Source: Patescibacteria group bacterium
GTDB taxonomy: Bacteria; Patescibacteriota; Minisyncoccia; Phycocordibacterales; UBA2100
Reading direction: 5' to 3'
Assembly: GCA_015485505.1 (NCBI GenBank)
Contig: WFTK01000003.1
Location: 1-59,993 of the forward strand
DNA: 59,993 nucleotides
Both the position numbers and the translations under genes were made by a program. Below, one piece after another: positions 23,836-58,569 of this stretch. Positions within the stretch are counted from its first letter, which is position 1. Each line of letters opens with the position of its first letter. The notes under the pieces were generated by a model that did no database searches, was not told the DNA's origin, and was given only the letters and a program-made list of their open reading frames with translations.

Positions 23836-23866
23836 AACCGTATTATAACATTATCTTTATGAGTTT

Positions 23867-24352: not shown

Positions 24353-24356
24353 ATTG

Positions 24357-26225: not shown

Positions 26226-26232
26226 AATATCT

Positions 26233-26895: not shown

Positions 26896-26908
26896 TGGTA
26901 TTATATTG

Positions 26909-27367: not shown

Positions 27368-27414
27368 ATAAATATATTATACCACCCTTAAAGACTAGGC
27401 ATTAAGCATATCCA

Positions 27415-27930
27415 CTACTCTATAGGCTCATGGTATGGATCATCTACCTTTGATGTACTATTTACTTTGGGAGTATATGTTGATGGATTTGTAGGAGCCT
27501 CGGAGAACTTACTGATGTCTATAGGGTTCTTCGCAGGAGTAGTATCGTCTATAGTCTCTAGTGTACTCTGCGCCTCCCCCACCTGCTCTTTTAAGGACTC
27601 TTGTATAGGGTCAAAGACTATAGCTATCACAGCCTCTGTTATCTTATTAGCTTGCTCGGGTGTAAGGCCAACATCCTTAACTATATTCTCCGGCAAGTCT
27701 TGAGGTTCTGTAATACCTAATAATGCCAGCATAATCTCATTCTCTAACAAGCGCCACTTATCAAGGTGTAGGCTATAGGCCTTAGAGAGTTCTCGGAGCT
27801 TAGCTTGTACATCTGCATTAGCTATAGTCTCTTGTACCACTTTAGGTAGTGAGTTATAAGCATCTTTTATTTGTTGTTGTATATCTGCCTCTTGCATATT
27901 AATTGTTTTATCTTTGTGTGCCTTCAGCAT
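27415..27930 (-). CDS. Acidic helical protein, unknown function (T4SS-like operon)
   Basis: 171-aa ORF with no TM segment. Overlaps the upstream gene by 23 nt. Confidence 0.45.
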   Translation of the reverse strand: MLKAHKDKTINMQEADIQQQIKDAYNSLPKVVQETIANADVQAKLRELSKAYSLHLDKWRLLENEIMLALLGITEPQDLPENIVKDVGLTPEQANKITEAVIAIVFDPIQESLKEQVGEAQSTLETIDDTTPAKNPIDISKFSEAPTNPSTYTPKVNSTSKVDDPYHEPIE

Positions 27931-28258
27931 TTAGCCTTTTAAAGTCGGCTATGGTGTCACCTATTACAGTATTGGCTATCTTGTCTATTTTATCTCGTTC
28001 TATATGCTTTAAGAAGATGACTTCAACGGCCTCGCTCTGTCCAGACTCAAGTAGAGTATTAACATGATCCATTATCTCCTCTGGTAGCTGAGAGACTAAC
28101 GCTATGGCAATTCGGTCTAATATTATTGTGCTTAGTTTGGTTATAATCTCAGCTTGCTCCTCCCTACTCAGGTGGGTCAAGTCTAGTTGCTCTACAAGTT
28201 TATTGCGAATCTCCTTAACCTCTGGGGGTGCTTGAGTGTTTATGCTATTAGTATCCAT
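27908..28258 (-). CDS. Small acidic helical protein, unknown function (T4SS-like operon)
   Basis: 116-aa ORF in operon context. Confidence 0.45.
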   Translation of the reverse strand: MDTNSINTQAPPEVKEIRNKLVEQLDLTHLSREEQAEIITKLSTIILDRIAIALVSQLPEEIMDHVNTLLESGQSEAVEVIFLKHIERDKIDKIANTVIGDTIADFKRLNAEGTQR

Positions 28259-28302
28259 AGTGTATTTATATTAACATATTAATTCATTGATAATTTAGCA
28301 AG

Positions 28303-29628
28303 TTACGAGTTACCCATATGCATCCAGAGAGTGCTCAATGTACTGGCTGTAGCAACTGCTAGACTCGTCTTTTTTTGTCTATCTTTGAGTTCTGGGAGTC
28401 GTTGGTCTAAGATATTCCTAAGTGCTGTACGAGATATTTTATGAAAGGCCGTTCCACGCGTAGGAGGCTCGCTCCAGAGCCTCTTGAGAGTCTCTCTTAC
28501 TATTTTAATGTTAGGTTTATGTAAGTATATACCCTCCTTTCTATCAAGCTGTTTATTAAATTCGTATAAAGTCTGTAAGAGCTGAGCATCATATAGCCGG
28601 CTACCTGACTCTCCGCGCTTGTTCCACAGTGCGCTGCCGACTAATCCGGCTCCACCTCCGGCCACAGAGTACCCTACGTGTGCTAGTACCCCGGCTCCAC
28701 CTGTAAGGGCTCCCGCTGTTATAGCTCCACCTACAGGCAATATGGTGTGCCCTATTGCTCTGCGTATATCTAGAATCTTTTTATATTTTTTGTCTTTAAG
28801 TAGTTGTTCTATAGTCATATTCTTTGGGGCTTTAGCTTCTGAGTCATTATTTATCTTTTGGTAATACCAATCAAGAGATTCTTGCTCCATTTCTTCTATA
28901 GAATTTAATTCTATATTTATGCCGTGCTTCCGTGCTATGTCTCTATCTATGGGGCTACTTGCATCGAACTCATCACGCGGTAGTAAGCTCAAATTATACT
29001 TACCCGCAAATTCATCAGCTGCGCCTCCTAAACGGATTATATCAGTAGTATTATTACGTATAATATCTTCACTTACGTGGGGGCTTGCTAAAGCTACAAT
29101 TTGTTTACTTAGTTCATCTGCTAAGGGGTCTAAGTATTCAAGGTATTCATCGATGGTTTTACTTACACGTATATAAGTGGCGAGTCGAGCATATCTATTA
29201 ACTACTTGTTCTATTTTACTCCTATTTCCTTTATCAATTTTGTCTCCAGACTCTTTTAGTATGTTTGTTATAAAATGCTGGTTTTCTCTTCTTAAATACC
29301 TGGTAAGTATCTGTTCCCTCTTAAGCCCCTCAGGCGTATCATTATATATATTAGGTACAGGCAAATTTGGATTTTGTATCAAGGCTTTTATATCATCTGT
29401 AAGCTCCTCTGGTGACTCACCTGAGTGTTTTTTAGGTGTAGGACCTTCAACAACCTCTGTACTGTTACTTATTTGGTGTATTTTGGGATTATGGTGAGGG
29501 TATAAGAAGCTAGGTATATTATTTTTATCCATACGGTGCAGCATCATCTCCTCATCATGCGTCTCACGTAAAAGCTCCTTTTGCTTGTCGGTCAATAGCT
29601 CTCCTGGTCTCTTCTCAAACTTTGGCAT
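28303..29628 (-). CDS. Unknown protein with a C-terminal Gly-rich membrane segment (T4SS-like operon)
   Basis: 441 aa. GGAITAGALTGGAGVLAHVGYSVAGGGAGLVGSAL near the C-terminus. Starts 2 nt after the upstream stop. Confidence 0.5.
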   Translation of the reverse strand: MPKFEKRPGELLTDKQKELLRETHDEEMMLHRMDKNNIPSFLYPHHNPKIHQISNSTEVVEGPTPKKHSGESPEELTDDIKALIQNPNLPVPNIYNDTPEGLKREQILTRYLRRENQHFITNILKESGDKIDKGNRSKIEQVVNRYARLATYIRVSKTIDEYLEYLDPLADELSKQIVALASPHVSEDIIRNNTTDIIRLGGAADEFAGKYNLSLLPRDEFDASSPIDRDIARKHGINIELNSIEEMEQESLDWYYQKINNDSEAKAPKNMTIEQLLKDKKYKKILDIRRAIGHTILPVGGAITAGALTGGAGVLAHVGYSVAGGGAGLVGSALWNKRGESGSRLYDAQLLQTLYEFNKQLDRKEGIYLHKPNIKIVRETLKRLWSEPPTRGTAFHKISRTALRNILDQRLPELKDRQKKTSLAVATASTLSTLWMHMGNS

Positions 29629-29629
29629 A

Positions 29630-32089
29630 CTATTTTTCCTCTTTAGTAGCGTCTTTATTAGCTTCTTTTACTGCATCAGATATATTCTTATCTTTGCTAG
29701 AGAGTGCCGCAAGTAACGCTTTACGTACCTTGGCGTCCTCTTCTTGTTTAGCTATGTCGCTTTTACTCATACCGGCTTTTTGCATTTGCTTAGACATAAA
29801 CTTTAGATTTGCTGTGTGTTGTCCTAATAACTTATTTAGCTTATTTAATGAGTCTGGGTTCATTGTAGCTATAACGTCTGCAGACGGCATCGATACAACC
29901 TTGTTATTTTTATCAAATTGTATACCTAGTTGCTCTAGCCAATCTCTGTCTGTAGTTGATAGACTGCTGGCAGCTTTAGCAAGACGAGTTTTACTTATTG
30001 TCTCTTGCCACTTTTGTTCGTAACTCTTTAATGTGCGGTCTAGCTCTTGTATTTGGTCTTGGTAGTTGGTGTGTTGTTTCTCTAACTCATCAATCTCACG
30101 TTTGTGTGCAGTAATTTGGGCATCACGCTCTAGTTGCTTTAACTTATTCTCTTCTTGTATCCTACTTAAGTTTGCTTTAGCTATACTTAATTCATCGTGA
30201 GTCCTTTGTGCCTCTTCTTTTAATTTCTCTGCCTCTTGTAATGTATTTGAGTGAGTTTGTATTCTTGCTTGAGTATCTGACTTTTCTTTACTTAACTCGG
30301 CGATCTCTTTATTTAAGCTGTCAAAGTCTGCATTACCCACACTTAGTCCATCAGCTCGTAACTTCTCCAGCTCTAATGATTTACTATCTAATTTAGCTTC
30401 GATGTTTTTAATTTTACTTGTCTCCTCAGCCATAAGAGCACCTGCCTCTTGTGCGGTATTGCTGGCCTGCTTACTCCTCTCCTCGATCTCTGTAACTTTA
30501 CGCTCTTTCTCTTCAACTGTCTTCTGAGCTGCTTGCTGAGCCGTAGAGTCGTCTTTATTTTGTTTCTCCAGCTTTCTCATTTCGGCTTCTTGCTTTTTAA
30601 TCTGTTCTTCTAGATCCTTTTGCGCCTTTTGTGCTGCTGTCTTGGCACCCTTTGTGGCGTTATATACCCCACTACCCTCTGCAATAGCCTCTTGTACTTG
30701 CTTTAGCTGAGCCTCATCATGTTTTTTGTCATACTTTTCTCTTTGTTCTTTGATCTTTTTAAATCCGTCTGTAACACCCTTACCTAAGTTAATACCAGCC
30801 TGCTCCATGAACTTTTGTGCATTTTTATTTTGACGGATATCATATGAGGAGTTTGCCACGCTCTTAAGTGCACCACTATTTGCAAGAGAGTTTAATCCGC
30901 GACTTAGTCGAGCACTATTGGTACTATCAGCCCACTTGCCTAACCTGTCACTCATATAACTTGCACCACGGCCGAGAGTGCCTCTACCTGCCCAGCCTGC
31001 AGATGCTATAGCTGGTCTACTTACGGTTCTTTGTGCCCAGTTCATAAGTCCATTTACTCTGCCTCCAATAGCGCCCATAGAGTCCGCGGCTTTGTTAGAG
31101 AGTATCGTAGAGATACGTATTGCTCCCCAAAGTAGACCTATACCTATTAAGAATTTAACTATAACTAAAGCAAAACCACTATCTAGTGTACCAGTGGTAA
31201 GCTCACCGCCTGCAATACTCCCACTAGACTTTAGCGGTCCCATTACCTCCATTAACTTAGTGACCATAAATAGAGTTAAAAGCAGTATTGGTGCTAGTAG
31301 AGAGTTATATAAAAGACCATTGCGCCAAGATATCCAATATTTGTTAAGTGCCGGTATAAGCATGGCGGCGAAGGCGAAGGAGGATGTTGCCAAAAGGATA
31401 AACAATAATATTGCCCTAGCTATAAACATAAATGCCATACGGAAGAACATTATCGATGCAAGTAGGGTCAATACAAGTGTGGCCGTAAATTGACCTACGA
31501 TACTGGCGAAGTCATTAGTATTAGTTGTAGTATCTAACTCTTCTGAACCAATATATTTTTTAAGTGAATCCCAAGTCTTAGACAGTAGTTCACCCGTCAT
31601 CTCTACGCCATTCATATTCGTTACAATTATATCTGCCAAGCCCTCATTTTGTATTGATTGCACGTTACCTGCTTTATCCTTTGGTAGCATGGCGTTGTAT
31701 GTTTGGACAGACATCCAGTTGGTGATGTCTATAGCAGTGAGGGTGAAGAAGAAGCTAAAGTTGATGAGGATGGCTACTGTCAGTAGTGTAACTATCTCTC
31801 TACGGTAGTCCTTACTAATACTAAGTATCTTAGATATAGCAATATAAACAAAGGCACCGATTATAAGGATATTTGATATATCTCGTATCATTAGCCATAT
31901 ACTCTTTATTGCAGACATTAGTCCAGTATCTCCAGACTGGCCCTTAACAGTTTTATAGAACTCTAATACGGTATAGTTTAAAGAGGAGTCAAACATGCTA
32001 ACAGAAGCCCAAAGCATGATGCCAGGCACAATTATAAGTAGTGCTATTTTACCTCCAAGACCCGCTAGATTTAACGCTAGGTTTAACAT
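29630..32089 (-). CDS. VirB6/TrbL-like polytopic membrane protein fused to a ~400-aa coiled-coil tail
   Basis: At least 7 hydrophobic helices in the first ~370 aa, then a K/E/Q/A-rich heptad-like sequence up to the C-terminus. Confidence 0.45.
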   Translation of the reverse strand: MLNLALNLAGLGGKIALLIIVPGIMLWASVSMFDSSLNYTVLEFYKTVKGQSGDTGLMSAIKSIWLMIRDISNILIIGAFVYIAISKILSISKDYRREIVTLLTVAILINFSFFFTLTAIDITNWMSVQTYNAMLPKDKAGNVQSIQNEGLADIIVTNMNGVEMTGELLSKTWDSLKKYIGSEELDTTTNTNDFASIVGQFTATLVLTLLASIMFFRMAFMFIARAILLFILLATSSFAFAAMLIPALNKYWISWRNGLLYNSLLAPILLLTLFMVTKLMEVMGPLKSSGSIAGGELTTGTLDSGFALVIVKFLIGIGLLWGAIRISTILSNKAADSMGAIGGRVNGLMNWAQRTVSRPAIASAGWAGRGTLGRGASYMSDRLGKWADSTNSARLSRGLNSLANSGALKSVANSSYDIRQNKNAQKFMEQAGINLGKGVTDGFKKIKEQREKYDKKHDEAQLKQVQEAIAEGSGVYNATKGAKTAAQKAQKDLEEQIKKQEAEMRKLEKQNKDDSTAQQAAQKTVEEKERKVTEIEERSKQASNTAQEAGALMAEETSKIKNIEAKLDSKSLELEKLRADGLSVGNADFDSLNKEIAELSKEKSDTQARIQTHSNTLQEAEKLKEEAQRTHDELSIAKANLSRIQEENKLKQLERDAQITAHKREIDELEKQHTNYQDQIQELDRTLKSYEQKWQETISKTRLAKAASSLSTTDRDWLEQLGIQFDKNNKVVSMPSADVIATMNPDSLNKLNKLLGQHTANLKFMSKQMQKAGMSKSDIAKQEEDAKVRKALLAALSSKDKNISDAVKEANKDATKEEK

Positions 32090-32127
32090 ATTCTTATTTT
32101 ATATTGTGAGAAACCGAGCATACAGAT

Positions 32128-33867
32128 TTAATTCTTCTCTTGGTCGCGCCATTTTGTTGGGTCGCACCATGACGCTTCCCACTGTGAGCTTGTCTCGGTT
32201 ATAAGGTCTGACATTGATGATTGTATCTGTGCTTGTTGATCTTGAGCTATCAGTACATCTGAGGTTTTGTGCAACGTGCCACTTGCAACTAGTTGATCTA
32301 TCTCCCCTAGCACAGCGCGTGTCTCAGTTGGGGTAGTAGCAGATGAGAGTCTTACTTGTAAATCTGTTAGCTTGGTGAGGGCTGCGTTAGAGTCTTCAAG
32401 ATTTTGCTTTATTGTGGCCAGTAGAGGTACTATGTCTGTTGTGAGCACTGATAAGTAGTATTTGGTAGTACGCAGTATTGTAGCCTCAGCCTTATTCCCC
32501 CCACCTGCTGCTACTATATCAATGTCTATTGTCGTCTCTTGGGTGTCTGTGAGAGGGTCCTCACCATATGGAGGCTCCTCTGTGCTTGGTGTAGATATGG
32601 CAGTGCCGTTAACGGTATTGAGCTCAGCCAGCAAGTCTACCTTTGCTTGTGCTACTAAGCCACCCCAGCATGCGGCATCTTTGGTTTGTAGAGCTTGGAT
32701 CGTGCGGTTGATGGTGTCAAATGATGCTTTACGTGCCATGTTATACTCAGACTCGGCTATTATAGCTTTAGATAGGGTGTCATTTGCTATTGATGTATAC
32801 TGCCCTCTGGCACGTGCAGCAGAGTCCTGGACTATCCTATCTAAGAAGGAAAGCCCGCCATTGATGGAGTCTGGCAAGCCCTTAAGACCGCCTACACTTG
32901 TGAGTATTTGAGTGTGTATGTTACTCATGAGAGAGCCTATAAGTTCACCCGTTGCGTCGGCATTTTCTAGCTGTCTCTGGCCTGTTAGAGATGTGTAGCT
33001 TATGATATCCTTAACAACAGCGCCTGGAGTGACTATCTGCTCTACCTCCTCAAACTCGCCATTACCCTTAGGTATACGCTTCTTCTCCTTTTTAGACTTG
33101 AAGCCATCTCCCCAGCCTAATAGGGTAAATTCGTCTTTTATTTTCTCCTCCTTGTCTTTTTGTAATTGGTCGGCTGCCCCCAAGTATACTAGTAGCGGGT
33201 TGTTCTCTGGAGAGATGACCTTTAGGTAAATGTCTTTATTAAATCTACCTTTGCCGTTTAAGAAGTCTTTAAATGCCTGCTGCTCCTCACTCGGTACGCT
33301 ACAACTATATGACACCTCGGGGTTATTAACCTCTCTGTCGGTCTGAGCTTTTAGAGTCTTTTTTACATCTTCTTTAAAGGGTTCACAGATGTTCTCTGTC
33401 CTTGGGCCAGAGATAAAGTCGTCTGTTACTTTTGTTTTGAGATCGTCTCTAAATTTCTTTGGGTTTTCCTCAAAGGCTGGTTGATTAGCAGCCCAAGAGA
33501 GAGTGCTCTTGGCCATTGCGGCTATCATCGTCTCACGAATGCGAGTTACTACTCCGTCTAAGATACACTGCTTATACAAGAGTATATTTGTATTAGTGAT
33601 GGTTGCTTGATCTGCAACGGGTACAAATACACCTTGTGCCCTTTCCGCCCCAACAGAGCCATACTTACCTCCCTCACAGCTATATAGCCCCTCTGTGCTA
33701 TAGCCCTCGGGTATAGAGTCGCTGTCACCTACTGTCGGCAATGGGTCACCTGGAGTGACTGTAGTGTCAGTGGTCTGTGCGGTAGCCGTCTGAGCAAATA
33801 ATAAGAACACTACTATTAATAGTATGGCGAGTTTATCAGTATTGTTTTGTGTGTGTGTCTTTATCAT
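32128..33867 (-). CDS. Secreted protein, unknown function (T4SS-like operon)
   Basis: Signal peptide LAILLIVVFLLFAQTATA. 579 aa. 4-nt overlap with the upstream gene. Confidence 0.5.
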   Translation of the reverse strand: MIKTHTQNNTDKLAILLIVVFLLFAQTATAQTTDTTVTPGDPLPTVGDSDSIPEGYSTEGLYSCEGGKYGSVGAERAQGVFVPVADQATITNTNILLYKQCILDGVVTRIRETMIAAMAKSTLSWAANQPAFEENPKKFRDDLKTKVTDDFISGPRTENICEPFKEDVKKTLKAQTDREVNNPEVSYSCSVPSEEQQAFKDFLNGKGRFNKDIYLKVISPENNPLLVYLGAADQLQKDKEEKIKDEFTLLGWGDGFKSKKEKKRIPKGNGEFEEVEQIVTPGAVVKDIISYTSLTGQRQLENADATGELIGSLMSNIHTQILTSVGGLKGLPDSINGGLSFLDRIVQDSAARARGQYTSIANDTLSKAIIAESEYNMARKASFDTINRTIQALQTKDAACWGGLVAQAKVDLLAELNTVNGTAISTPSTEEPPYGEDPLTDTQETTIDIDIVAAGGGNKAEATILRTTKYYLSVLTTDIVPLLATIKQNLEDSNAALTKLTDLQVRLSSATTPTETRAVLGEIDQLVASGTLHKTSDVLIAQDQQAQIQSSMSDLITETSSQWEASWCDPTKWRDQEKN

Positions 33868-34673
33868 ATGCTTGTGTCGTAGACTCCCTTAAGGATGAAG
33901 TAAGTTTTAAGATCCTCAAAAGCGCGCCCAAGCTCCTCCTCAGCTTGAGAGAAGTTGGCTGTGCCAGAGAGGCTCGCAGCCGGGTCGTCGTAACCTTTAG
34001 AGAGCTCTGTAAGTATAACAGAGAATTTGCGCAAGCTATTAACTATAGCTAAGTGTACGGCTGATACGTCTTTAGGTACAGGGACTTTTAGTACCTCTAG
34101 TGCGGCATTGTTGTATACAGTTGCTATATTAGCTAGAGAGTCAAAGTCGTCTTTAGAGTTGTCTCTTATAGCGCGGGCATATATTGTGAGCTCATACTCC
34201 TTAAGGTTAAAGATCGGTTGCAGTGCTTGTTGTAATTGAGTTTTATAGATCTCAACAGCGGGTTTACTTGTGTCGGTTATTATATTAAGCTCCGTGGCTG
34301 TTGTGGGAGTAAAGTTGAGTTGTAGCATGTAGTCTGTGGCCCTCTCTACTATTTGTTGTCCACTCTCTGGAGTATAGTTGCCATCTTTAAGTTGTTTAAG
34401 GTACGGACCTATTACATTGCGGGTTAGTATGTCAGTCTCTGTTAGTGACTCCGGCTCGTCTGTTGCAGAGTTGTCAGTAGAGTCTTCTGTCGGGCTATTA
34501 TCAGGGTTATATACCAGCTTATCGTCAGTAGTAGCTGTATTTTGTACTGGTGTTTCAATGATTATAGGTGTACTGTTGCGCTTATTGCTTATATAAAATG
34601 CTCCTCCAATTATAAGTACACCCAATACGCTGGACACTAACAACTTTTTACTTAGTACAAGAGGCTCACCCAT
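33864..34673 (-). CDS. Single-pass membrane protein, T/D-rich linker plus helical ectodomain (T4SS-like operon)
   Basis: TM LLVSSVLGVLIIGGAFYI. Same architecture as 34692-35573. Confidence 0.5.
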   Translation of the reverse strand: MGEPLVLSKKLLVSSVLGVLIIGGAFYISNKRNSTPIIIETPVQNTATTDDKLVYNPDNSPTEDSTDNSATDEPESLTETDILTRNVIGPYLKQLKDGNYTPESGQQIVERATDYMLQLNFTPTTATELNIITDTSKPAVEIYKTQLQQALQPIFNLKEYELTIYARAIRDNSKDDFDSLANIATVYNNAALEVLKVPVPKDVSAVHLAIVNSLRKFSVILTELSKGYDDPAASLSGTANFSQAEEELGRAFEDLKTYFILKGVYDTSI

Positions 34674-34691
34674 ATGGCTATTATAGCACTA

Positions 34692-35573
34692 CTATAAGCT
34701 GGGAGGCATGAATATATCCCCACCCTCACCTTTATTAAACTTGATGCCATAGAGCTTGAAGATCTTTGCAAATTTGATATAGCTCTTTGCAAATTCGTCT
34801 ACCGTGGCATTGTACCTATATATCTCATCTAGTAGGTCCTTGTCTGAGACTTTACCTACTAGGGCTATTGTTGCCTCCCCTACCTTTTTATAACCTTCAC
34901 TGAGTTTAGTGACAGGCTCTACTAAGGGTATGGGGGCTTGTGCTACTTTGAGACTCTCGGAGAGGGTTATGTATTGTTGCCCTAGTTGGAGCAGAGCGTC
35001 GCCCGTTTGTTGACTCTCTCTGTCGTCTACAAAATTTTGTATTAATTGGGGTTGATCTCCAGCCTTGAGCGTAAACTCTTTTATAGTGTTGCCAACCTCA
35101 TTACCATAGTCATATATTGCCAGCTCTAGTGGTGTTTTGCTAGGGGTTGGTGTTTGCTCTTGCGATGTACTTGGTTGTTTGGTTGGTAGCCATGACCACA
35201 GGTCAGATATATAGTCTGGTAGTATTGATTGTTCTTTTGGTTCATCTGTTATGGTTGTAGGCATAGACTTTGTTGGTGGAGGAGATGTGGGTTCGTCGTT
35301 ATTAACAACCACCACTTGAGTCGTAGTGTCTTTAGTTTGTTGCCAATCTGGTAGAGAGTCAGCTTGCGGTTTAGGAGTGTCACTTTCTCTAGGAACAAAT
35401 GCATTGTATTTAGTTACCGGCCTTGTCTGCATCACCTCTACATTAGAGAAGGTGTCAGATTCTTGCTCGGTAACGCTTATCATCTGTTTTATTAATATAG
35501 CCGCTGATAGCAACACAACAGCCATAAAAGCTAATATTAGTATAAATACCAGTCTTTTATTATCTTTTATCAT
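34692..35573 (-). CDS. Single-pass membrane protein, T/P-rich linker plus helical ectodomain (T4SS-like operon)
   Basis: TM LVFILILAFMAVVLLSAAILI. Likely a distant paralogue of 33864-34673. Confidence 0.5.
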   Translation of the reverse strand: MIKDNKRLVFILILAFMAVVLLSAAILIKQMISVTEQESDTFSNVEVMQTRPVTKYNAFVPRESDTPKPQADSLPDWQQTKDTTTQVVVVNNDEPTSPPPTKSMPTTITDEPKEQSILPDYISDLWSWLPTKQPSTSQEQTPTPSKTPLELAIYDYGNEVGNTIKEFTLKAGDQPQLIQNFVDDRESQQTGDALLQLGQQYITLSESLKVAQAPIPLVEPVTKLSEGYKKVGEATIALVGKVSDKDLLDEIYRYNATVDEFAKSYIKFAKIFKLYGIKFNKGEGGDIFMPPSL

Positions 35574-35574
35574 A

Positions 35575-35898
35575 TTATCTACTTGAGCCCATCATCATGA
35601 TTAACCATCCGGGTCGTACATCTAATGGCAATACTGTGACAAGGCAAAAGTAGCTAGGGCCAGCATTACCAAGCAGCCATTGACCTCTGCGAGTAGGTGG
35701 GCCAAAAGAGTATGTATCAGTTATAGATGGACTCCACAAGTACTCACCACCTCTTGGTGGTCCTAATACGGTATATGTGACCATGTTTAGACAACCTATA
35801 ATTGTGTTTATGGGCCCGCCAAAGCTTATTGCAGCCGCAGCAGTATTGGGTACAACTAACGTTAATAGTAACATTATAGCTATTGCATATTTACGCAT
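35575..35898 (-). CDS. Small secreted protein, first gene of the T4SS-like operon
   Basis: Start set at MRKYAIAIMLLLTLVVPNTAAAA (signal peptide). The longer tracked ORF would overlap the rsmA 3' end. Confidence 0.45.
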   Translation of the reverse strand: MRKYAIAIMLLLTLVVPNTAAAAISFGGPINTIIGCLNMVTYTVLGPPRGGEYLWSPSITDTYSFGPPTRRGQWLLGNAGPSYFCLVTVLPLDVRPGWLIMMMGSSR

Positions 35899-35906
35899 TG
35901 CTTTGA

Positions 35907-36680
35907 TTATAGCATATGAGCTAAGGTCTTTGTTAGGGTTGCCCACTCCTCAAGAGTCAGAGTCTCGGCTCTGGCTGAGTCGCTTATGTCTAATCTTTCA
36001 AGCTCCTCTTTACTTATGTTTAAATTATTTGCGAGTATTTTGCGCTTTTGAGAGAAGCCGAGCCTTAGGACTTTAAAAAAATCCTTTTCAGTAATATTGT
36101 TAGTTATAAAGAAATCTTTAGAGATATCTGCAATGTGTAATATCGCAGAGTCTACTCGTGGCTTGGGGTTGAAGAGCATTGCTGGTACCTTCTGTACATA
36201 CTTTGGCTCCCCATAGGCTTTGACACTCATGCTTAAGATGCTCTCTTTGGCATCTCTGGCGACTATGCGTTGTGCTACCTCCTTTTGTACTAAGAGAGTC
36301 ATGCTTATGGGTTGTTGCTTAGACTCTAAGAACTTTCTTAATATCTCCCCTGTTATATAATACGGTATGTTTGCTATGAGCTTGTAATGTTTGGGTAGTG
36401 TAGAAATATCAAATGTGGAGATGTCTGTATTGATTAGGGTCAATTGCTCGGAGGTTAGCTCTTTTGCAAATTTCTCTTGTAATAGTGGCATCAATTCAAT
36501 GTCTTTCTCTATAGCTATAACGGTAGCCCCAGTGTTGAGTAGTTCTACGGTGAGTGCTCCCTTGCCCGGGCCTATCTCTACAACAACATCTGCACTTGAT
36601 AAGCCTGCTGTTTCTATCATCTTGCGTACTACGGCCGGGCTCTTTAAAAAGTTTTGCCCTAATGACTTTTTAGCTCGCAT
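35907..36680 (-). CDS. rsmA: 16S rRNA (adenine1518/1519-N6) dimethyltransferase
   Basis: KSLGQNFL start motif, SAM-binding VVEIGPGKGALT, ANIPYYIT. Confidence 0.9.
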   Translation of the reverse strand: MRAKKSLGQNFLKSPAVVRKMIETAGLSSADVVVEIGPGKGALTVELLNTGATVIAIEKDIELMPLLQEKFAKELTSEQLTLINTDISTFDISTLPKHYKLIANIPYYITGEILRKFLESKQQPISMTLLVQKEVAQRIVARDAKESILSMSVKAYGEPKYVQKVPAMLFNPKPRVDSAILHIADISKDFFITNNITEKDFFKVLRLGFSQKRKILANNLNISKEELERLDISDSARAETLTLEEWATLTKTLAHML

Positions 36681-46004: not shown

Positions 46005-46096
46005 AGTTTGAAGGTCTCACAAACAAATTTTAAAACCCTCTACCCCTAGCCGCCCACTGCCCCAGGTTTGAAAATTGTTTCCTCAACCTTCAAACT
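46005..46096 (-). ncRNA. Long imperfect hairpin with a conserved 25-nt loop, copy A (rplJ 5' region)
   Basis: Outer stem 46005-46015 AGTTTGAAGGT / 46086-46096 ACCTTCAAACT. Conserved core 46033-46071 is shared with 51.5 kb. Strand assignment is inferred from the flanking genes. Confidence 0.5.
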
Positions 46097-51495: not shown

Positions 51496-51587
51496 GGTCC
51501 GAGCTATTTCATAAACAAAACTCAAACCCTCTACCCCTAGCCGCCCACTGCCCCGGGTTTGAGTTTTATTTACTCATATCTCGGACC
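51496..51587 (-). ncRNA. Long imperfect hairpin with a conserved 25-nt loop, copy B (pnp 5' region)
   Basis: Outer stem 51496-51503 GGTCCGAG / 51580-51587 CTCGGACC. Inner 13-bp stem 51517-51529 / 51555-51567. Loop TCTACCCCTAGCCGCCCACTGCCCC. Confidence 0.5.
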
Positions 51588-52817: not shown

Positions 52818-52934
52818 CTACAAAACTAAACTACCCAGGGGTTCACCATATTTTTACTGCGGTAAAAATTGGCTCTGCTCGCCGGCATTAACGATGCCGT
52901 CTGCGCAAGACCCCGTGGTTAGTTTGTTTTATAG
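52818..52934. repeat. Structured three-way-junction repeat, copy 1
   Basis: Core AAACTACCCAGGGGTTCACC...CCCCGTGGTTAGTTT. Extended closing stem CTACAAAAC / GTTTTATAG. Lies 29 nt after the rpsO stop. Confidence 0.8.
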
Positions 52935-52962
52935 ATTTACTGAGAGTCCGTAAAAAGCAATA

Positions 52963-53232
52963 TTACTTCTTAAGACCAAGAGTCTTTATAAGCTCCGTGT
53001 AAGTGTTTGAGTCTTTACGCTCTAGATACTTAAGGTGCTTGCGGCGGTCGGCTACCATCTGTAGTAAACCACGGCGTGAGTGATTGTCTTTGTGATTTGC
53101 CTTAAGGTGAGCTGCGAGCTTGTCTATCTTCTTAGAGAGTATTGATACTTGCACACCAGCAGAGCCAGTGTCACTTTCATGCTTTTGACCTTTCTTTATT
53201 GCTGCTGTTTTTACTCTTTTTGTTAATGTCAT
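52963..53232 (-). CDS. rpsO: 30S ribosomal protein S15
   Basis: ...DTGSAGVQVSILSKKIDKLAAHLKANHKDNHSRRGLLQMVADRRKHLKYL... Confidence 0.95.
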   Translation of the reverse strand: MTLTKRVKTAAIKKGQKHESDTGSAGVQVSILSKKIDKLAAHLKANHKDNHSRRGLLQMVADRRKHLKYLERKDSNTYTELIKTLGLKK

Positions 53233-53287
53233 ATGATTATCGTGACTTAATGCGCGCGATTATACAATATATTAGCCACCAATGCAA

Positions 53288-53319
53288 GCCCACACACCTT
53301 TAATCAAAGGTGTGTGGGC
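53288..53319. promoter_or_regulatory. Perfect 14-bp inverted repeat between the divergent rpsO and xerC/D promoters
   Basis: GCCCACACACCTTT-AATC-AAAGGTGTGTGGGC. No U-run on either side. Confidence 0.5.
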
Positions 53320-53346
53320 AAGTTCCTGCCATGGGTTAGTTATTGG

Positions 53347-53355
53347 TGTTATAAT
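53347..53355 (+). promoter_or_regulatory. Extended -10 TGTTATAAT, 7 nt before the recombinase ATG
   Basis: TGnTATAAT-N7-ATG(53363). Confidence 0.55.
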
Positions 53356-53362
53356 AATATTA

Positions 53363-54280
53363 ATGCAAAGTTTACAAGATCTTAAGCAGGAGTACTTAGA
53401 ATATTTAGAGATTGAGCGTGGGCGAGCTGCGCGGACTGTTGCTAATTATGATCAATATTTGGTGAGGTATCTTGACTACTCTGGAGTAGAGAAGCCAAAA
53501 GATATTACAGAGCAGTCAGTACGTGAGTATCGCCTGTGGCTTAATAGGCAAATTGGTACTGATGGTGACACTCTTAAGAAGAACACACAGAATTATCACC
53601 TCATAGCTCTGCGCTCATTCTTAAAATACCTTCGTAAGAGAGATATTAAGTGCCTAGCGCCAGACAAAATAGAGCTTGCCAAGCTTGGAGACAGAGATCT
53701 GGATCTAATAACTTATGATGAACTCAAGCGTCTACTTGAGGCTCCGAGGAGGGGCGAGGATAAAGATTCTATTAAGGCCCTGAGAGACTCGGCAATATTG
53801 CACACGCTATTTTCTACAGGTTTACGCGTTTCTGAGTTGTGCTCTGTGGATAGAGATTTAGACCTTACTCGTGATGAGTTCTCTGTGCGGGGCAAAGGCT
53901 CTAAGGTGCGCGTTGTCTTCCTCTCACCTGCTGCTAAGATTGCTATCAAGCTCTATCTTGCGGCTCGTAAAGATATGGATGAGGCGATGTTCATCTCCCT
54001 AGCTAAGGGTGCGGAGGAGAGCGGAGATATGCGTCTTACACCCCGCTCTGTAGAGAGGATAGTCAAGAAGCGAGCTGTTGAGGCCGGTATTAGCAAAAAG
54101 GTTACCCCGCATGTTATACGTCATAGCTTTGCTACTGATTTATTAGAAGGTGGTGCAGACCTGCGCGCTGTGCAGGCACTCTTGGGCCATGCCAACATAT
54201 CTACTACGCAGGTGTATACTCATGTGACAGATAAACACCTTAAGGATGTGCATAAGGCCTTTCATAATCGCAAGCGATAA
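53363..54280 (+). CDS. xerC: Tyrosine recombinase, XerC/XerD family
   Basis: N-terminal SAM-like domain (YLEYLEIERGRAARTVANY). Catalytic R..HxxR..Y: GLRVSEL, IRHSFATDLL, LGHANISTTQVYTHV. Start at ATG 53363. Confidence 0.85.
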   Translation: MQSLQDLKQEYLEYLEIERGRAARTVANYDQYLVRYLDYSGVEKPKDITEQSVREYRLWLNRQIGTDGDTLKKNTQNYHLIALRSFLKYLRKRDIKCLAPDKIELAKLGDRDLDLITYDELKRLLEAPRRGEDKDSIKALRDSAILHTLFSTGLRVSELCSVDRDLDLTRDEFSVRGKGSKVRVVFLSPAAKIAIKLYLAARKDMDEAMFISLAKGAEESGDMRLTPRSVERIVKKRAVEAGISKKVTPHVIRHSFATDLLEGGADLRAVQALLGHANISTTQVYTHVTDKHLKDVHKAFHNRKR

Positions 54281-54310
54281 GCTCGTCTCTGTGTAGTCTT
54301 TGTAAGATTG

Positions 54311-54319
54311 TGATATTAT
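54311..54319 (+). promoter_or_regulatory. Extended -10 TGATATTAT, 7 nt before the xth ATG
   Basis: TGnTATTAT-N7-ATG(54327). Confidence 0.55.
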
Positions 54320-54326
54320 CTAGTAT

Positions 54327-55106
54327 ATGAGAATAGTATCTTGGAATGTTAATGGACTGCGCGCAGTACATCGTAATGGGTATTGGCGCGATTTTATGTC
54401 TCTTAAGCCTGATATTATTTGCCTGCAAGAGACCAAGATGGAGAAGGGGCAACTAAGTGAGAATATCCGTGAAATGCCCGGATATATATCACTGTGGAAC
54501 AGTAGTAAGAAGCGTAAGGGCTACAGTGGTACCGCAATGTATATTGCAGAACCGATTGCCAAGAATATTAAGGAGGTGCACTATGGCCTGGGGAGTGAGG
54601 AGTATGATGGTGAGGGTCGGCTTATAACAGTAGAGTTTGATGACTTTGTAGTGTGTAACGGATACTTCCCCAATGGTGGGGGCGGACCTGAGAGACTGTC
54701 CTTTAAGATGGGCTACTACGAGACGTTTATGTCCTTTATAGAGAATGTCCGTAAGAGACAACCAAATGTCCTTTGGATGGGAGATGTCAATACAGCGCAT
54801 AATGAGATAGATCTTGCTAGGCCAAAGGCGAATGAGAAGAACACGGGCTTCTTACCTATGGAGCGTGAGTGGATAGACGAGGTGGAGGCACTTGGGTATG
54901 TAGATACCTTTAGATATTTACACCCAGAGAAGGTGCAGTACTCATATTGGGATATGAAGACGCGCGCACGGGAGAGGAATGTTGGTTGGCGTATAGACTA
55001 TATTTTTGTAAGTGAGGAGTTATTGCCTAGAGTTAAGAAGGCTCAGATACACACGAGTATATATGGCTCAGACCACTGCCCTATCTCTGTTGACTTGGAT
55101 ATGTAG
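54327..55106 (+). CDS. xth: Exodeoxyribonuclease III (AP endonuclease)
   Basis: MRIVSWNVNGLR, CLQETK, WRIDYIF, GSDHCPI. Confidence 0.9.
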   Translation: MRIVSWNVNGLRAVHRNGYWRDFMSLKPDIICLQETKMEKGQLSENIREMPGYISLWNSSKKRKGYSGTAMYIAEPIAKNIKEVHYGLGSEEYDGEGRLITVEFDDFVVCNGYFPNGGGGPERLSFKMGYYETFMSFIENVRKRQPNVLWMGDVNTAHNEIDLARPKANEKNTGFLPMEREWIDEVEALGYVDTFRYLHPEKVQYSYWDMKTRARERNVGWRIDYIFVSEELLPRVKKAQIHTSIYGSDHCPISVDLDM

Positions 55107-55124
55107 TTTAAAAGTCTCAAAGCT

Positions 55125-55241
55125 CTGCAGGACGAAACTACCCAGGGGTTCACCGTATTTTCTCTGTGGAGAAAATCGGCTCTGCTCGCCGGCATTAACG
55201 ATGCCGTCTGCGCAAGACCCCGTGGTTAGTTTGCCCTACAG
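55125..55241. repeat. Structured three-way-junction repeat, copy 2
   Basis: Same core. Extended closing stem CTGCAGG / CCTACAG. Sits between the convergent xth and cca stops. Confidence 0.8.
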
Positions 55242-55255
55242 AATTTTAATATTAC

Positions 55256-56740
55256 TTAAGACACATGATGCTTCTCTCTGAGCTTCGCCACTTCAGCTTC
55301 ATCGGCTTCTCTCTGCTTTTCTGCTCCATTCTTACCGAGTTCTCTCAGTTCTGCATCGTTTAGTTTTAAGAGCTCTTCAGCTCTTTTAGTTAGATACTCT
55401 TGAGTGTTGTTGCTTGCATCATCTAGGACATCCTCAAGTAGAGCGTGCAATAACCAGCCTATGCGTGGGCCGGGCTTCTCGCCGAATGTCTGCATTATGT
55501 AGCCGCCGTCTATCTTGAGCATGCCGACCGATATTGGGTCTCGGAGTGCTTCATCTACCATCGCCTGATATTTGCGGAAGCGGAATGGTTGCTCCTTAGG
55601 CCTACCACTACCTATCCTGTCGCACATTCTTATGTTCAGTAGTTTTTGTATATTCCCCTCCCCTACATTTGTAATCATCCTACGCACGGCAGAGAGTGTG
55701 ATGATATCTGGATCAGAGAAGAACATATGCCAGCGCACAAGACTCACTACTTGCTCGGTTATATCTTTAGAGTATTTGAGTCGTTGCATGATCTCTTTAG
55801 TCATCCTTGCGCCTATTACCTCGTGACCGTAGAAGGTGTATCCGTTACCTTTAGTCCTGCGACTCCTAGGCTTGCCTATATCGTGGAAGAGGCTTGCCAG
55901 GCGCTCCTCTAGTGTCAGGCCTTTATCAGCTGCGTGCTGTAATGCTCTTAAGTTGTGCTCGTATACATCATACTTGTGTGCCTTTTTGCCTTGCTTGCAT
56001 CCTATGCCCTCTCTTAGCTCAGGTATTATGTATTGCAATAGTTGTAGTTGCTCAGAGAGACCGAGTGCAGTGGCTGGAGTGTCAGACATCATTATCTTAT
56101 TAAGCTCGTCATGTATGCGCTCTTTAGATACCCTCTCTAGTAGTGCAGAGTTACTTGCTATAGCGAGCATCGTTTCGCCATCAATAGCAAACTCTAGCTG
56201 TGCTGAGAGTCTTAGGGCGCGCATCATACGCAAGGCATCCTCGCCAAATCTGGTGTTAGCATCACCCACTGTCTTGAGTACACCAGCCTCAAGATCATCA
56301 AGACCTGTGAAGTCGTCTACAAGCTCATCTGTAATTACTCTATAGGCTATAGCATTGATGGTGAAGTCGCGCCTCTTAAGGTCATCATGTAAGGAGTCGC
56401 TAAACTCCACAGAGTCTGGGCGACGAGAGTCGGTATATGCTCCCTCTGTACGATATGGAGTGACCTCTAGTATCTCTGTTGCTGGGTTACCACTGTCGGT
56501 CTTAACTCCTACTGTACCAAAGTTATTCTCATAGAAGGTCTCATCTTTACCGAAGATTGCCTGTATTTGCTCTGGCTTTGCGTTGGTGGTTATGTCCCAA
56601 TCTTTTGGTATTTTACCCAATAGAGTGTCTCGTACACATCCACCTACCAAGTAGGCCTCGTAGCCGGCTGACTCAATTGCCATTGTTACGTCTAGTACCT
56701 TCTCGGGTATTATTGATTTGTCCATCTGTGGCTTTGTCAT
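55256..56740 (-). CDS. cca: CCA-adding tRNA nucleotidyltransferase with HD domain
   Basis: LVGGCVRDTLLG, DITT and RRD motifs of class II nucleotidyltransferases. HD motif LFHDIGK. Start set at MTKPQMDK; the tracked ORF extends to 56809. Confidence 0.85.
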   Translation of the reverse strand: MTKPQMDKSIIPEKVLDVTMAIESAGYEAYLVGGCVRDTLLGKIPKDWDITTNAKPEQIQAIFGKDETFYENNFGTVGVKTDSGNPATEILEVTPYRTEGAYTDSRRPDSVEFSDSLHDDLKRRDFTINAIAYRVITDELVDDFTGLDDLEAGVLKTVGDANTRFGEDALRMMRALRLSAQLEFAIDGETMLAIASNSALLERVSKERIHDELNKIMMSDTPATALGLSEQLQLLQYIIPELREGIGCKQGKKAHKYDVYEHNLRALQHAADKGLTLEERLASLFHDIGKPRSRRTKGNGYTFYGHEVIGARMTKEIMQRLKYSKDITEQVVSLVRWHMFFSDPDIITLSAVRRMITNVGEGNIQKLLNIRMCDRIGSGRPKEQPFRFRKYQAMVDEALRDPISVGMLKIDGGYIMQTFGEKPGPRIGWLLHALLEDVLDDASNNTQEYLTKRAEELLKLNDAELRELGKNGAEKQREADEAEVAKLREKHHVS

Positions 56741-56825
56741 AATCTTTGTCTTGTCGGTATAATACAGTAATTGTTGCATTAGTGCGAGCTTAGCGTATGA
56801 TATCGACACACTTAATTAGTGTGAT

Positions 56826-56898
56826 GCATCCGTGGCTCAATGGATAGAGCACTTCGCTTCGGACGAAGGGGTTGGGGGTTCGAATCCCTCCGGATGCA
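56826..56898 (+). tRNA. tRNA-Arg (anticodon UCG), no encoded CCA
   Basis: Acceptor GCATCCG/CGGATGC, anticodon arm CTTCG-CTTCGGA-CGAAG, T arm GGGGG-TTCGAAT-CCCTC. Confidence 0.9.
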
Positions 56899-56909
56899 CA
56901 GTAAATATT

Positions 56910-57614
56910 ATGCTATTAATAGACAAACCAGTCGGTATAAGCTCATTTGCTATAGTAGCGCATGTTCGACGTGTAACAGGAGTTAAAAAGGTTGGTCATG
57001 CAGGTACACTAGACCCTCTTGCCTCAGGACTCATGCTTATATTAGTGGGCAGAGAGGAGACAAAGCAAGCTGCCAAGTTACTTGGTTTAGACAAGGTATA
57101 TAAAACCACAGTACGCATAGGAGAAGAGAGGGATACAGGAGATTTAGAGGGTAAAATGGTTGCACATGCAACAAATCTAGATAGTGTTACACGTGAAACG
57201 TTAGAGAGGGATATAAAACAAGCATTAGAGACAATGACAGGGATTAACAAACTACCTGTACCGGCTTACTCCGCAATTAAGCAAGATGGGCAAAGATTAT
57301 ATAAAAAGGCTCGTAAAGACCAGGAGATCATATTGCCAATGCGTGATATGCATGTATATAGCGTAAAGTTGATAAATCTTACACGTGTAACCATACGAGA
57401 TATTGTGATGTATGAGGCAGATATTGAGTTTTCTGTAGCTAGTGGTGTGTATATTCGCTCTCTTTCAGAAGAGCTGGGTAGGCGAGTAGGTTATCCTGCT
57501 ACTACTGCCAAACTTAGGCGTATAAGTATAGCCGAGTACTCTATAAAAGATGCGCAGGTCCTTGATGAGGTAAATAACAATAATGAGTTGATTCACCATG
57601 AAATTAATGTATAA
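56910..57614 (+). CDS. truB: tRNA pseudouridine-55 synthase
   Basis: LLIDKPVGISS, GHAGTLDPLASG (catalytic Asp). Start at ATG 56910; the tracked ORF start lies inside tRNA-Arg. Confidence 0.9.
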   Translation: MLLIDKPVGISSFAIVAHVRRVTGVKKVGHAGTLDPLASGLMLILVGREETKQAAKLLGLDKVYKTTVRIGEERDTGDLEGKMVAHATNLDSVTRETLERDIKQALETMTGINKLPVPAYSAIKQDGQRLYKKARKDQEIILPMRDMHVYSVKLINLTRVTIRDIVMYEADIEFSVASGVYIRSLSEELGRRVGYPATTAKLRRISIAEYSIKDAQVLDEVNNNNELIHHEINV

Positions 57615-57629
57615 TCTTGCTCATACCAT

Positions 57630-57700
57630 GCGGATATAGTTAAGTGGTATAACACATCCTTGCCATGGATGAATCGGGGTTTCGATTACCCCTATCCGCA
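57630..57700 (+). tRNA. tRNA-Gly (anticodon GCC), no encoded CCA
   Basis: Acceptor GCGGATA/TATCCGC, anticodon arm CATCC-TTGCCAT-GGATG, T arm GGGGT-TTCGATT-ACCCC. Confidence 0.9.
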
Positions 57701-57834
57701 CTAAATACTTAAGGCTATTTATACTAAAGTTCAGTGTCTTTTATAGTATATTGGCAATATTTGTTGACATATATACAAAATATCAAGCGTAATAATGGCT
57801 TATTATAAGGGTAAGTAGAAGTTATGCCCAATTA

Positions 57835-57879
57835 TGTGGATAACTGTGGGGATATGTGGATAAAGGACATTGTCCATAA
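57835..57879. promoter_or_regulatory. Phased array of DnaA-box-like 9-mers outside the dnaA locus
   Basis: TGTGGATAA (57835-57843, perfect), TGTGGGGAT (57845-57853), TGTGGATAA (57855-57863, perfect), TGTCCATAA (57871-57879). All have the same orientation. Confidence 0.6.
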
Positions 57880-57964
57880 AATCCGTACTACCTATAGTTA
57901 TAGGACAAAGTCTTAAAATATGACCAGATTAAGTTTCATAAGTAACATTGTTGCATGTGAAATG

Positions 57965-57973
57965 TGGTATTAT
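57965..57973 (+). promoter_or_regulatory. Extended -10 TGGTATTAT, 8 nt before the yraN ATG
   Basis: TGnTATTAT-N8-ATG(57982). TTGCAT lies 17 nt upstream as a possible -35. Confidence 0.5.
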
Positions 57974-57981
57974 ATACAAAT

Positions 57982-58374
57982 ATGGCTAAACATAACGACT
58001 TAGGTGCTTTAGGAGAGAATATCGCTTGTAAGTTTCTTGTGAGCAAGGGTTTAAAGGTGGTAGAGAGGAACCATTGGCGTAAGTGGGGAGAGATAGATAT
58101 TGTTGCATGTGCAACATCTGGAGTAGTACATTTTGTAGAGGTTAAGAGTACTGGTAAAGATTATCCCTCAAGAAGTTCGGGACAGGCACAGCTGGATGAC
58201 TGGAGACCAGAAGATATGTTGCATCATAATAAGATTGAGAGGCTAAAGAGAGTGATACAGACGTATATATTAGAGAATGATGTAGAAGATTGGGTATTTG
58301 ACGTGGTAATAGTGTATATAAACAAAAGGACACGGTTGGCGAGGTGCAAGTATATAGAGGACATTATACTTTAG
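57982..58374 (+). CDS. yraN: YraN-family (UPF0102) endonuclease-like protein
   Basis: LGALGENIACKFLVSKGLKVVERNHWRKWGEIDIVA...VHFVEVKS, the typical UPF0102 pattern. Confidence 0.75.
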   Translation: MAKHNDLGALGENIACKFLVSKGLKVVERNHWRKWGEIDIVACATSGVVHFVEVKSTGKDYPSRSSGQAQLDDWRPEDMLHHNKIERLKRVIQTYILENDVEDWVFDVVIVYINKRTRLARCKYIEDIIL

Positions 58375-58444
58375 TCTCTTAGGTGTCCATTATATATATC
58401 GGAAAAGGACAACATAGGGGATAGAACTACTCTGGCAATGGTAG

Positions 58445-58569
58445 CTCTCAACAAAACGAAACTACCCAGGGGTTCACCGTATTTTCTCTGTGGAGAAAAT
58501 CGGATCTGCTCGCCAGCATTAACGATGCTGCCTCCGCAAGACCCCGTGGTTAGTTTGTTTTGTTGAGAG
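58445..58569. repeat. Structured three-way-junction repeat, copy 3
   Basis: Same core. Extended closing stem CTCTCAACAAAAC / GTTTTGTTGAGAG. Lies between yraN and tRNA-Pro. Confidence 0.8.

Follow-up and report, generated by a model that had tools for sequence, protein, structure and literature searches.

What is the non-coding element that recurs three times, always in the same orientation and always at gene 3' ends, within a few kilobases of a patescibacterial contig: a structured RNA, a terminator, or a repeat that is gained and lost? The contig is WFTK01000003.1 (assembly GCA_015485505.1, Patescibacteria group bacterium), and the whole stretch that was analysed, hereafter the window, comprises its positions 1 to 59,993. 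The genomes of Patescibacteria are tiny and streamlined; few repeats have been recognised in them, and very few of their non-coding elements have been characterised. A first-pass annotation, made from the letters alone, had proposed that the three copies represent a new structured family, either an RNA or a structured terminator or repetitive extragenic palindromic (REP)-like element, and this proposal is supported by the lack of an Rfam match and by the covariation described below. What is said here about the strand, transcription, mobility mechanism and function of the element we infer from sequence.

Three copies of a three-way-junction element

All three copies were found again on the + strand at the places where the annotation had put them (Table 1). 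Their conserved cores are 98 nt long and 88-95% identical to one another. Each of the two terminal words of the core (20-mer AAACTACCCAGGGGTTCACC, 21-mer GCAAGACCCCGTGGTTAGTTT) is present exactly three times in the window, the number of matches expected by chance being 0 (100 shuffles, up to 3 mismatches allowed). A full covariance-model scan with the filters off found no fourth copy in the 60 kb; the three copies lie within 5.8 kb and the other 54 kb hold none.

Family members are about 120-160 nt long, non-coding, Y-shaped and palindromic. The long closing stem P1 (roughly 20-31 bp) has an A-rich 5' arm and a T-rich 3' arm, often of the form ...AAAAC-G-AAAC.../...GTTT-GTTTT..., and its sequence varies among the copies while its pairing is kept. 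Atop P1 lies a conserved three-way junction, GGGG-U-W-CA ... A-R-G-CCCC. In P2, 3 bp and a bulged U are followed by the invariant stretch AUUUU/AAAAU, by three variable pairs and by a UGNG loop; in P3, an internal loop (CUC.../...GUCYG) separates 3 bp from a further 4-6 bp, which are capped by a UUAAC-like loop. The unpaired features that are conserved comprise the junction GGGG-U-W-CA, the bulged U, the UGNG loop, the CUC and GUCYG of P3, the UUAAC-like loop and the A-R-G preceding CCCC. This three-helix fold is the minimum-free-energy structure of each window copy (-44 to -58 kcal/mol), with z-scores from -4.1 to -8.2 across the copies, and none of 200 shuffles folds as well. The reverse strand of the window copies forms the mirror structure and folds equally well or better.

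Copies 1 and 2 differ at seven core positions, six of which make up three paired changes in P2 while the seventh is in the P2 loop. Copy 3 shows a G-C to A-U change in P3 and three unpaired changes; the annotation had listed the paired differences correctly and had omitted these unpaired ones. It had also described outer extensions of P1 that differ between the copies but still pair. The pairing is indeed kept, though imperfectly, with C.A mismatches in copies 1 and 2. Changes in the outer stems outpace those in the core. In the window copies these outer stems are homologous to one another (CTCT...AC / G...AGAG) and evolve fast, through paired changes. They are not unrelated sequences, and they belong to the repeated unit instead of being independent hairpins of the host. 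No conservation of the flanks was seen when the copies were compared. The claim that no open reading frame (ORF) lies over any copy did not hold, since mechanically called ORFs overlap copies 2 and 3, though none is common to the copies.

Covariation across the ten copies

Syntenic loci of relatives (denoted here by L numbers) were fetched through homologues of the Xer-type recombinase encoded between copies 1 and 2, and were searched with covariance models built from a growing alignment. A search of this kind had been suggested by the annotation as a check, and it returned homologues whose substitutions preserve P1 to P3. The family now counts 10 distinct copies in 7 genomes at five intergenic sites: the three of the window and 7 much more diverged ones in six relatives resembling Candidatus Kaiserbacteria. 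The core identity of the diverged copies to the window is only 41-76%, yet P1, P2 and P3 are kept through many double substitutions, as expected from the annotation's view that selection acts on the structure.

In the 10-copy alignment, which was fitted to the covariance model and thereby favours the structure, 94.1% of the pair cells are standard pairs, against 41-49% when the partners are slid by 1-3 columns, and 31 of the 44 pairs show changes on both sides. Neither the observed pairing nor the covariation score was reached by any of 500 shuffles. With an independent MAFFT alignment and RNAalifold, 21 of the 44 pairs already covary in six sequences. The variants of P2a are CCA/UGG, CCG/CGG, GCA/UGC, CGA/UCG and GAG/CUC, those of P3a are UGC/GCA, CGC/GCG, GUC/GAC and CAC/GUG, and P1a occurs as GGGG/CCCC or GGAGG/CCUCC. 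In L013 nearly all of P1 is replaced by a different, perfect stem of 31 bp, and L001 also has a long P1 with at least 14 perfect bp. These results show that the fold is maintained by covariation.

The helices are strict in their pairing. P2 is 100% Watson-Crick, and P2 and P3 taken together are essentially all Watson-Crick. Interior G-U and A-C cells are equally frequent (about 10 each), and single-sided (G-U) intermediates occupy 6 cells compared with 107 double-change cells. Such Watson-Crick-dominated helices, in which G-U is avoided, fit single-stranded DNA or a function on both strands at least as well as RNA.

Searches for known families

Rfam 15 was searched with the window at the gathering score, and with copy 1 and the K-type copies at E<=10. 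The window yielded only five tRNAs at the gathering score, copy 1 had no match at E<=10, and the K-type copies gave only sub-threshold microRNA-hairpin noise (39 bits or less, where the cut-off is 81 bits). The annotation's failure to match the element to a known family is thus borne out at both thresholds, for the W-type as well as the K-type copies. 5S rRNA, Y RNA and small ribozymes were rejected as candidates, none of them giving an Rfam signal. An exact two-part pattern searched in GTDB genomes retrieved one true locus (L001, in a Kaiserbacteria metagenome-assembled genome, MAG) and four chance matches, while an 18-mer searched in JGI metagenomes gave four chance matches only. Two pattern scans of viral contigs and blastn against plasmid and phage collections found nothing real. 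The family is previously uncatalogued.

Gain and loss among related genomes

The window matches scaffold_253 of the ENA metagenome ERZ23495147. Its closest named relatives are Candidatus Kaiserbacteria MAGs, and the family is, as far as seen, restricted to a narrow Candidatus Kaiserbacteria-like clade. The loci were all centred on Xer, and the apparent clustering of the copies near this gene is therefore partly an ascertainment effect. The five sites, named A to E, are described in Table 1. As the annotation had remarked for the window, the copies stand just 3' of genes, and this is the case at all sites, those of the relatives included. Measured against the syntenic block, the 10 copies at the five sites share one orientation, whatever the directions of the flanking genes, and all lie to one side of dnaA/dnaN.

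The covariance-model search detected no copy in the 20-kb syntenic loci of L014, L018, L020, L022, L024 and L028. Site B is empty in L011, L014, L018, L020, L022, L024 and L030, where a gap of 0-35 nt or a gene overlap is found. The empty sites at B, D and E are all such gaps or overlaps without a hairpin; at these three sites the element is an insertion and not a variant of an older structure. The intergenic DNA of the nearest available relatives is heavily diverged around the empty-site junctions.

The similarity of the elements does not follow host relatedness. Judged by CCA protein identity, the closest relative of the window is L014 (86%), followed by L013 (80%), L011 (78.5%) and L001 (76%). 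L014 has no element, none of the sites being filled. The L013 and L011 copies have cores 56-76% identical to the window cores, and the L001 copy at site B is 90-95% identical to the window copies although L001 is more distant. Around the L001 copy the flanking DNA is about 76% identical to that of the window, as is the coding DNA; the tRNA genes of the two are 89-96% identical, comparable to the element core. The window shows that copies inside one genome can be nearly alike, while closer relatives carry very different ones at a shared site; the two copies of L023 are only 66% identical to each other. Copy 3 is a mosaic, with a core closest to copy 2 (95%) and an outer stem that matches copy 1 and L016. 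Simple vertical descent is insufficient to account for this pattern, and duplication or transposition, loss, and gene conversion or replacement are needed. Between related genomes the element is gained and lost, and it behaves as an interspersed repeat.

Table 1. Positions of the element, its sites and the other features discussed (window coordinates unless an L number is given)
Feature	Coordinates	Strand	Location or remarks
Copy 1 (site A)	52818..52934	+	between NYN-domain gene start and rpsO stop
Copy 1 parts	P1 5' arm 52818-52843; P2 52846-52872; P3 52876-52907; P1 3' arm 52909-52934		conserved core 52828-52925
Copy 2 (site B)	55125..55241	+	between convergent xth and cca stops
Copy 2 parts	P1 5' arm 55125-55150; P2 55153-55179; P3 55183-55214; P1 3' arm 55216-55241		core 55135-55232
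Copy 3 (site C)	58445..58569	+	3' of yraN/UPF0102, 5' of tRNA-Pro promoter
Copy 3 parts	P1 5' arm 58445-58474; P2 58477-58503; P3 58507-58538; P1 3' arm 58540-58569		core 58459-58556
Site A			NYN / rpsO; filled in window, L011, L023
Site B			xth / cca; filled in window, L001, L013, L023
Site C			yraN / tRNA-Pro; filled in window only
Site D			MscS / trypsin-like; filled in L016 only
Site E			Xer / xth (co-directional pair); filled in L030 only
Xer-type tyrosine recombinase	53282..54280	+	between copies 1 and 2; context, outside the element
Perfect 14-bp palindrome	53288-53319		very start of mechanical Xer ORF
C-rich repeat, window	46005-46096; 51512-51572
C-rich repeat, relatives	L013:3287-3313, 8737-8763; L011:3149-3175, 8629-8656; L022:6980-7006		L011:3149-3175 on opposite strand
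Probable replication origin region	16135-20724		dnaN and dnaA at 16.1-18.9 kb
Gene run of type-IV-secretion flavour	20711-35946	-
Long imperfect hairpin	11095-11255		between T2SSE/PilB-like ATPase gene and ruvB
Long near-perfect hairpins, relatives	L014:15345-15420; L030:15853-15935; L028:12140-12250; L022:8495-8580		intergenic
Inserts at tRNA-Pro, relatives	L022:15040-15330; L023:10920-11200		about 250 nt; 215 nt
Large serine recombinase gene	L013:13446-15086		adjoins cca

Comparison with known repeats

REP sequences and REPINs resemble the element in being short, non-coding, intergenic and palindromic, in standing at gene 3' ends, in occurring in several copies per genome and in showing compensatory hairpin changes; for REPINs, an alternative 'clover' fold, in which a stem carries two small hairpins, was also described (Bertels & Rainey 2011, PMC3116915). 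A REPIN, however, is made of two inverted copies of one REP, whereas the AU-rich P2 and the GC-rich P3 are unrelated and cannot pair with each other. The element also has no GTAG-type REP head, its copy number is far lower, and its orientation is uniform instead of alternating. None of the window ORFs scanned matched a RAYT or Y1 transposase. It differs from the IS200/IS605-derived PATEs in the dissimilar sequences of P2 and P3, in the long closing stem P1 and in the lack of a Y1_Tnp match in the window.

[quoted passage not shown] In our element the P1 arms pair in each copy but have no fixed terminal sequence, L013 sharing almost nothing of the window P1. A consistent target-site duplication is not visible, and no parent insertion sequence was found among the 54 window ORFs. 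Moreover, covariation preserves the internal junction even where identity falls to about 41-60%, which would be unexpected for decaying MITE copies. An ordinary MITE with fixed terminal inverted repeats, target-site duplications and a transposase, the outcome that the annotation had set against its own proposal, was not found.

With the attC sites of integrons the element shares a folded single strand that counts for more than sequence, a single orientation and a variable length, and attC sites are recombined by a tyrosine recombinase related to Xer. It nevertheless lacks the conserved R''/R' boxes (RYYYAAC/GTTRRRY) and the extrahelical bases, AAC/GTT being present only in some outer stems; no IntI is nearby, and the flanking genes are core genes and not promoterless cassettes. 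On these comparisons the element departs from REP/REPIN, MITE and attC in defining features, and its kind, a structured intergenic repeat, is not categorically new.

Nature of the element

Taken together, these features suggest, tentatively and with somewhat less than an even chance in our estimate, a REP/MITE-like interspersed structured element whose single-stranded fold is under selection and whose closing stem is terminator-like. Such an element would be copied on rare occasions into new permissive intergenic sites by a strand-specific process at the DNA level, with an enzyme encoded elsewhere than nearby, and its copies may exchange sequence by gene conversion. After insertion it would be co-transcribed within 3' untranslated regions (3' UTRs), where P1, with its A-tract, stem and T-tract, could serve as a terminator or 3'-end hairpin on either strand, like the genome's own bidirectional terminators. 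The constant chromosomal orientation, despite opposite transcription contexts at A and at C/E, argues for a process at the DNA level, as do the Watson-Crick pairing of P2 and P3, the equal numbers of interior G-U and A-C cells, the great length and perfection of some stems and the turnover of occupancy among relatives.

Several points weigh against this explanation. The copy number is low, with three copies in 60 kb, all within 5.8 kb, and the model search covered about 0.4 Mb from about 13 genomes. The probability that chance alone gives one orientation at five sites is about 0.06. No transposase, RAYT or other candidate enzyme was detected in the 54 window ORFs scanned, and we know of no DNA transposition system that uses a three-way-junction substrate. 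A target-site duplication of consistent length or sequence was not seen at the copies, whose flanks are AT-rich and palindromic; short direct repeats stand beside some of them (GTATTA in L001, GTTA in L013). As to the terminator-like stem, the relatives at B, D and E need no terminator, and a scan with a simple terminator consensus did not call the element but only an internal fragment. Finally, three traits are those usual in a functional RNA of the + strand: P1 is closed at the junction by a U.G pair in 9 of the 10 copies, a C(UGCG)G loop of the UNCG type is present in four copies, both being read on the + strand, and the unpaired nucleotides are conserved.

These three traits lead to the main rival, a strand-specific structured RNA of the + strand, which we consider unlikely but weightier than the other alternatives. 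It could act in cis as a 3'-UTR element, or be a small stable RNA that is released from read-through transcripts by cleavage at P1 (e.g. by RNase III). Its junction and loops would bind a protein or a ligand, and its copies would be paralogous RNA genes, with a pattern of gain and loss like that of the tRNA genes nearby. In addition to the U.G closure and the C(UGCG)G loop, it would account for the strong covariation, for unpaired junction and loop nucleotides that are more conserved than the stems, and for a core conserved between the window and L001 like their tRNA genes (90-95% vs 89-96%). All sites are at gene 3' ends, and at four of the five the element would be read from a + strand gene upstream of it, but at site A, in 3 genomes, the + strand runs antisense to the transcription unit of rpsO and NYN. 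Genes for tRNAs and RNA processing abound nearby; copy 2, however, has no room for a promoter or terminator of its own, and the flanks are not conserved between the copies. Nor does the pairing favour RNA, since interior G-U is no commoner than A-C, P2 and P3 are without G-U, and in 6 of 9 copies the fold of the reverse strand is equally good or better. The closest relative, moreover, is entirely without the element.

A further alternative, which we regard as quite unlikely, is a host bidirectional intrinsic terminator and nothing else, whose loop grew into two hairpins and which was duplicated a few times without any mobility of its own. The ordinary terminators of this genome are perfect palindromes with A-tract and T-tract arms and resemble P1 with a 3-nt loop. 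Like a bidirectional terminator, the element combines A-rich and T-rich arms with a G+C clamp, always lies at gene 3' ends, including those of convergent genes, and folds on both strands, for which Watson-Crick-only helices are suited. At three of the five sites the neighbouring genes are convergent or require a terminator. Where the element is missing from site A, a simple hairpin follows rpsO, and the perfect 12-bp hairpin that L001 carries at site C is degraded in the window; simple hairpins are thus absent or degraded at A and C where the element is present. Compensatory switches are also documented in the evolution of terminator stems (PMC5381666). Set against this, the 'loop' is a conserved two-hairpin junction of about 70 nt with invariant unpaired nucleotides, and a terminator needs neither its conserved junction, loop and internal-loop sequences nor the invariant AUUUU/AAAAU helix. 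The T-tract is short, weak and paired with the A-rich arm, and the terminator scan did not call the element. Most relatives at B, D and E have no hairpin in their short gaps, so that the element is present where they have no terminator; site E is inside a co-directional gene pair, and the constant orientation is left without explanation.

Insertion of the element into the loop of an older terminator hairpin was also considered and found unsupported: the window outer stems are homologous, and the L011 stem has no trace of the simple hairpin that L013 carries at the same site. Long near-perfect hairpins with stems of 18-24 bp and interiors of 25-50 nt were observed in L014, L030, L028 and L022 in the same kinds of intergenic sites (Table 1). 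They are unrelated in sequence to the element, and long decorated hairpins seem to be a general feature of these genomes.

It is highly unlikely, in our judgement, that the element is a non-functional duplicated palindrome whose paired changes arose by hairpin-templated, arm-to-arm gene conversion in extruded DNA hairpins. Such a process would agree with the long near-perfect stems (31 bp perfect in L013, at least 14 bp in L001), the scarcity of G-U intermediates (6 cells against 107) and the faster evolution of the outer stems. It would not explain why the core is far more conserved than the flanks, though coding DNA and CCA proteins are about 76% identical, or why the three-helix architecture and specific unpaired nucleotides persist at 41-60% core identity, and a neutral palindrome would vanish quickly from such compact genomes.

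The least credible alternative is a recombination site for the adjacent tyrosine recombinase, either a folded site like attC or an Xer/dif mimic comparable to the forked hairpin of the CTX phage: the recombinase gene lies between copies 1 and 2, all found copies are within about 10 kb of its orthologue, attC sites are defined more by structure than by sequence and have one orientation, and some outer stems end in ...AAC/GTT..., but the closeness to Xer largely reflects the Xer-centred fetching, the 'cassettes' on either side are core genes (rpsO, xth, cca, truB, tRNAs) with the same synteny with or without the element, the bulged bases of P1 are not conserved (L013 has none), and the stem varies between copies in one genome, unlike a fixed Xer binding site. 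The recombinase itself scores 222 bits with XerA (cut-off 220), 235 with XerC and 234 with XerD, and only 118.5 bits (cut-off 265, TIGR02249) and 76 bits (cut-off 435, NF011946) with integron integrase models, and it is 65-70% identical across Patescibacteria; by these scores it is a conserved housekeeping Xer-type enzyme. The recombinase scores, together with the core-gene 'cassettes' and the bulges that are not conserved, led to the rejection of both the integron/attC and the Xer-site reading.

It is possible, but doubtful, that the element represents a new structure-defined element of Patescibacteria, either a non-coding, mobile, strand-specific single-stranded three-way junction with an enzyme not yet linked to transposition, or a clade-specific structured RNA spread in 3' UTRs with a protein- or ligand-binding junction. 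Folded single-stranded DNA would make it a structure-specified mobile element with no known enzyme; as an RNA, it would be a new structured class and probably imply a new RNA-protein interaction in an uncultivated phylum. Either form, if true, would be a first for such reduced, repeat-poor genomes. The covariation is unusually clear for only ten sequences, the three-way junction is conserved and turnover occurs between close relatives. In either case the element is a marker of recent genome change in the clade, and the covariance model can be used for metagenome screening.

Genomic context and other features

The neighbourhood of the copies is rich in tRNA and RNA-processing genes. Its order is pnp, a hypothetical gene, the NYN-domain gene, copy 1 and rpsO, with these genes pointing leftward, then Xer and xth pointing rightward, copy 2, and cca pointing leftward. 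Beyond cca follow tRNA-Arg, truB, tRNA-Gly, the rightward yraN, copy 3, the rightward tRNA-Pro and a leftward gene for a trypsin-like protein. Copy 1 lies antisense to the operon around it, copy 2 is 18 nt from the xth stop and 14 nt from the cca stop, and copy 3 is in sense, 5' of the conserved tRNA-Pro promoter. The annotation had reported no transposase nearby. No transposase domain is indeed present in the 54 ORFs, but the statement passes over the tyrosine recombinase gene, whose product is conserved at 65-93% identity across Patescibacteria. The perfect 14-bp palindrome GCCCACACACCTTT / AAAGGTGTGTGGGC, with a 4-nt loop, stands at the very start of the mechanically called Xer ORF, and is probably in the divergent rpsO-xer promoter region, because Xer homologues are about 25 residues shorter.

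Elsewhere in the window, dnaN and dnaA on the - strand diverge from yidC and a jag-like R3H gene on the + strand, and the lowest G+C content of the window (0.33) is in the 15-20 kb bin. This is the probable replication origin region, and the copies, from the position of dnaA/dnaN, would lie 34-39 kb to one side of it; the GC skew of the window gives a weak signal as to replication direction. The adjoining - strand gene run includes a type IV secretion system pilin, a TraG/VirB4-like P-loop ATPase and PrgI, together with about ten large ORFs without a Pfam match. The long imperfect hairpin of Table 1 has 36-nt arms that are 78% complementary and a structured interior of 89 nt (-53 kcal/mol), and had no Rfam match at the gathering score.

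Among the relatives, the inserts in L022 and L023 are flanked by a duplicated tRNA-Pro 3' end and look like remnant att sites of a small integrated element. In L013, the large serine recombinase gene (Resolvase, Recombinase and Zn_ribbon_recom domains) adjoins cca and overlaps the called tRNA-Arg, which suggests an integrated element at this tRNA gene.

A second, unrelated repeat was also noticed. It has an invariant C-rich core of 27-28 nt, CCTCTACCCCTAGCCGCCCACTGCCCC, whose complement bears four G-runs. The core forms the loop of a long AT-rich hairpin, the arms of which differ among copies but pair. No match to this repeat was found in Rfam or viral contigs. It is found at two conserved locations, one just upstream of pnp and the other upstream of rplJ, the rplJ copy being inverted in L011. 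Among genomes with CCA proteins of about 71-80% identity, the core remains 93-100% identical.

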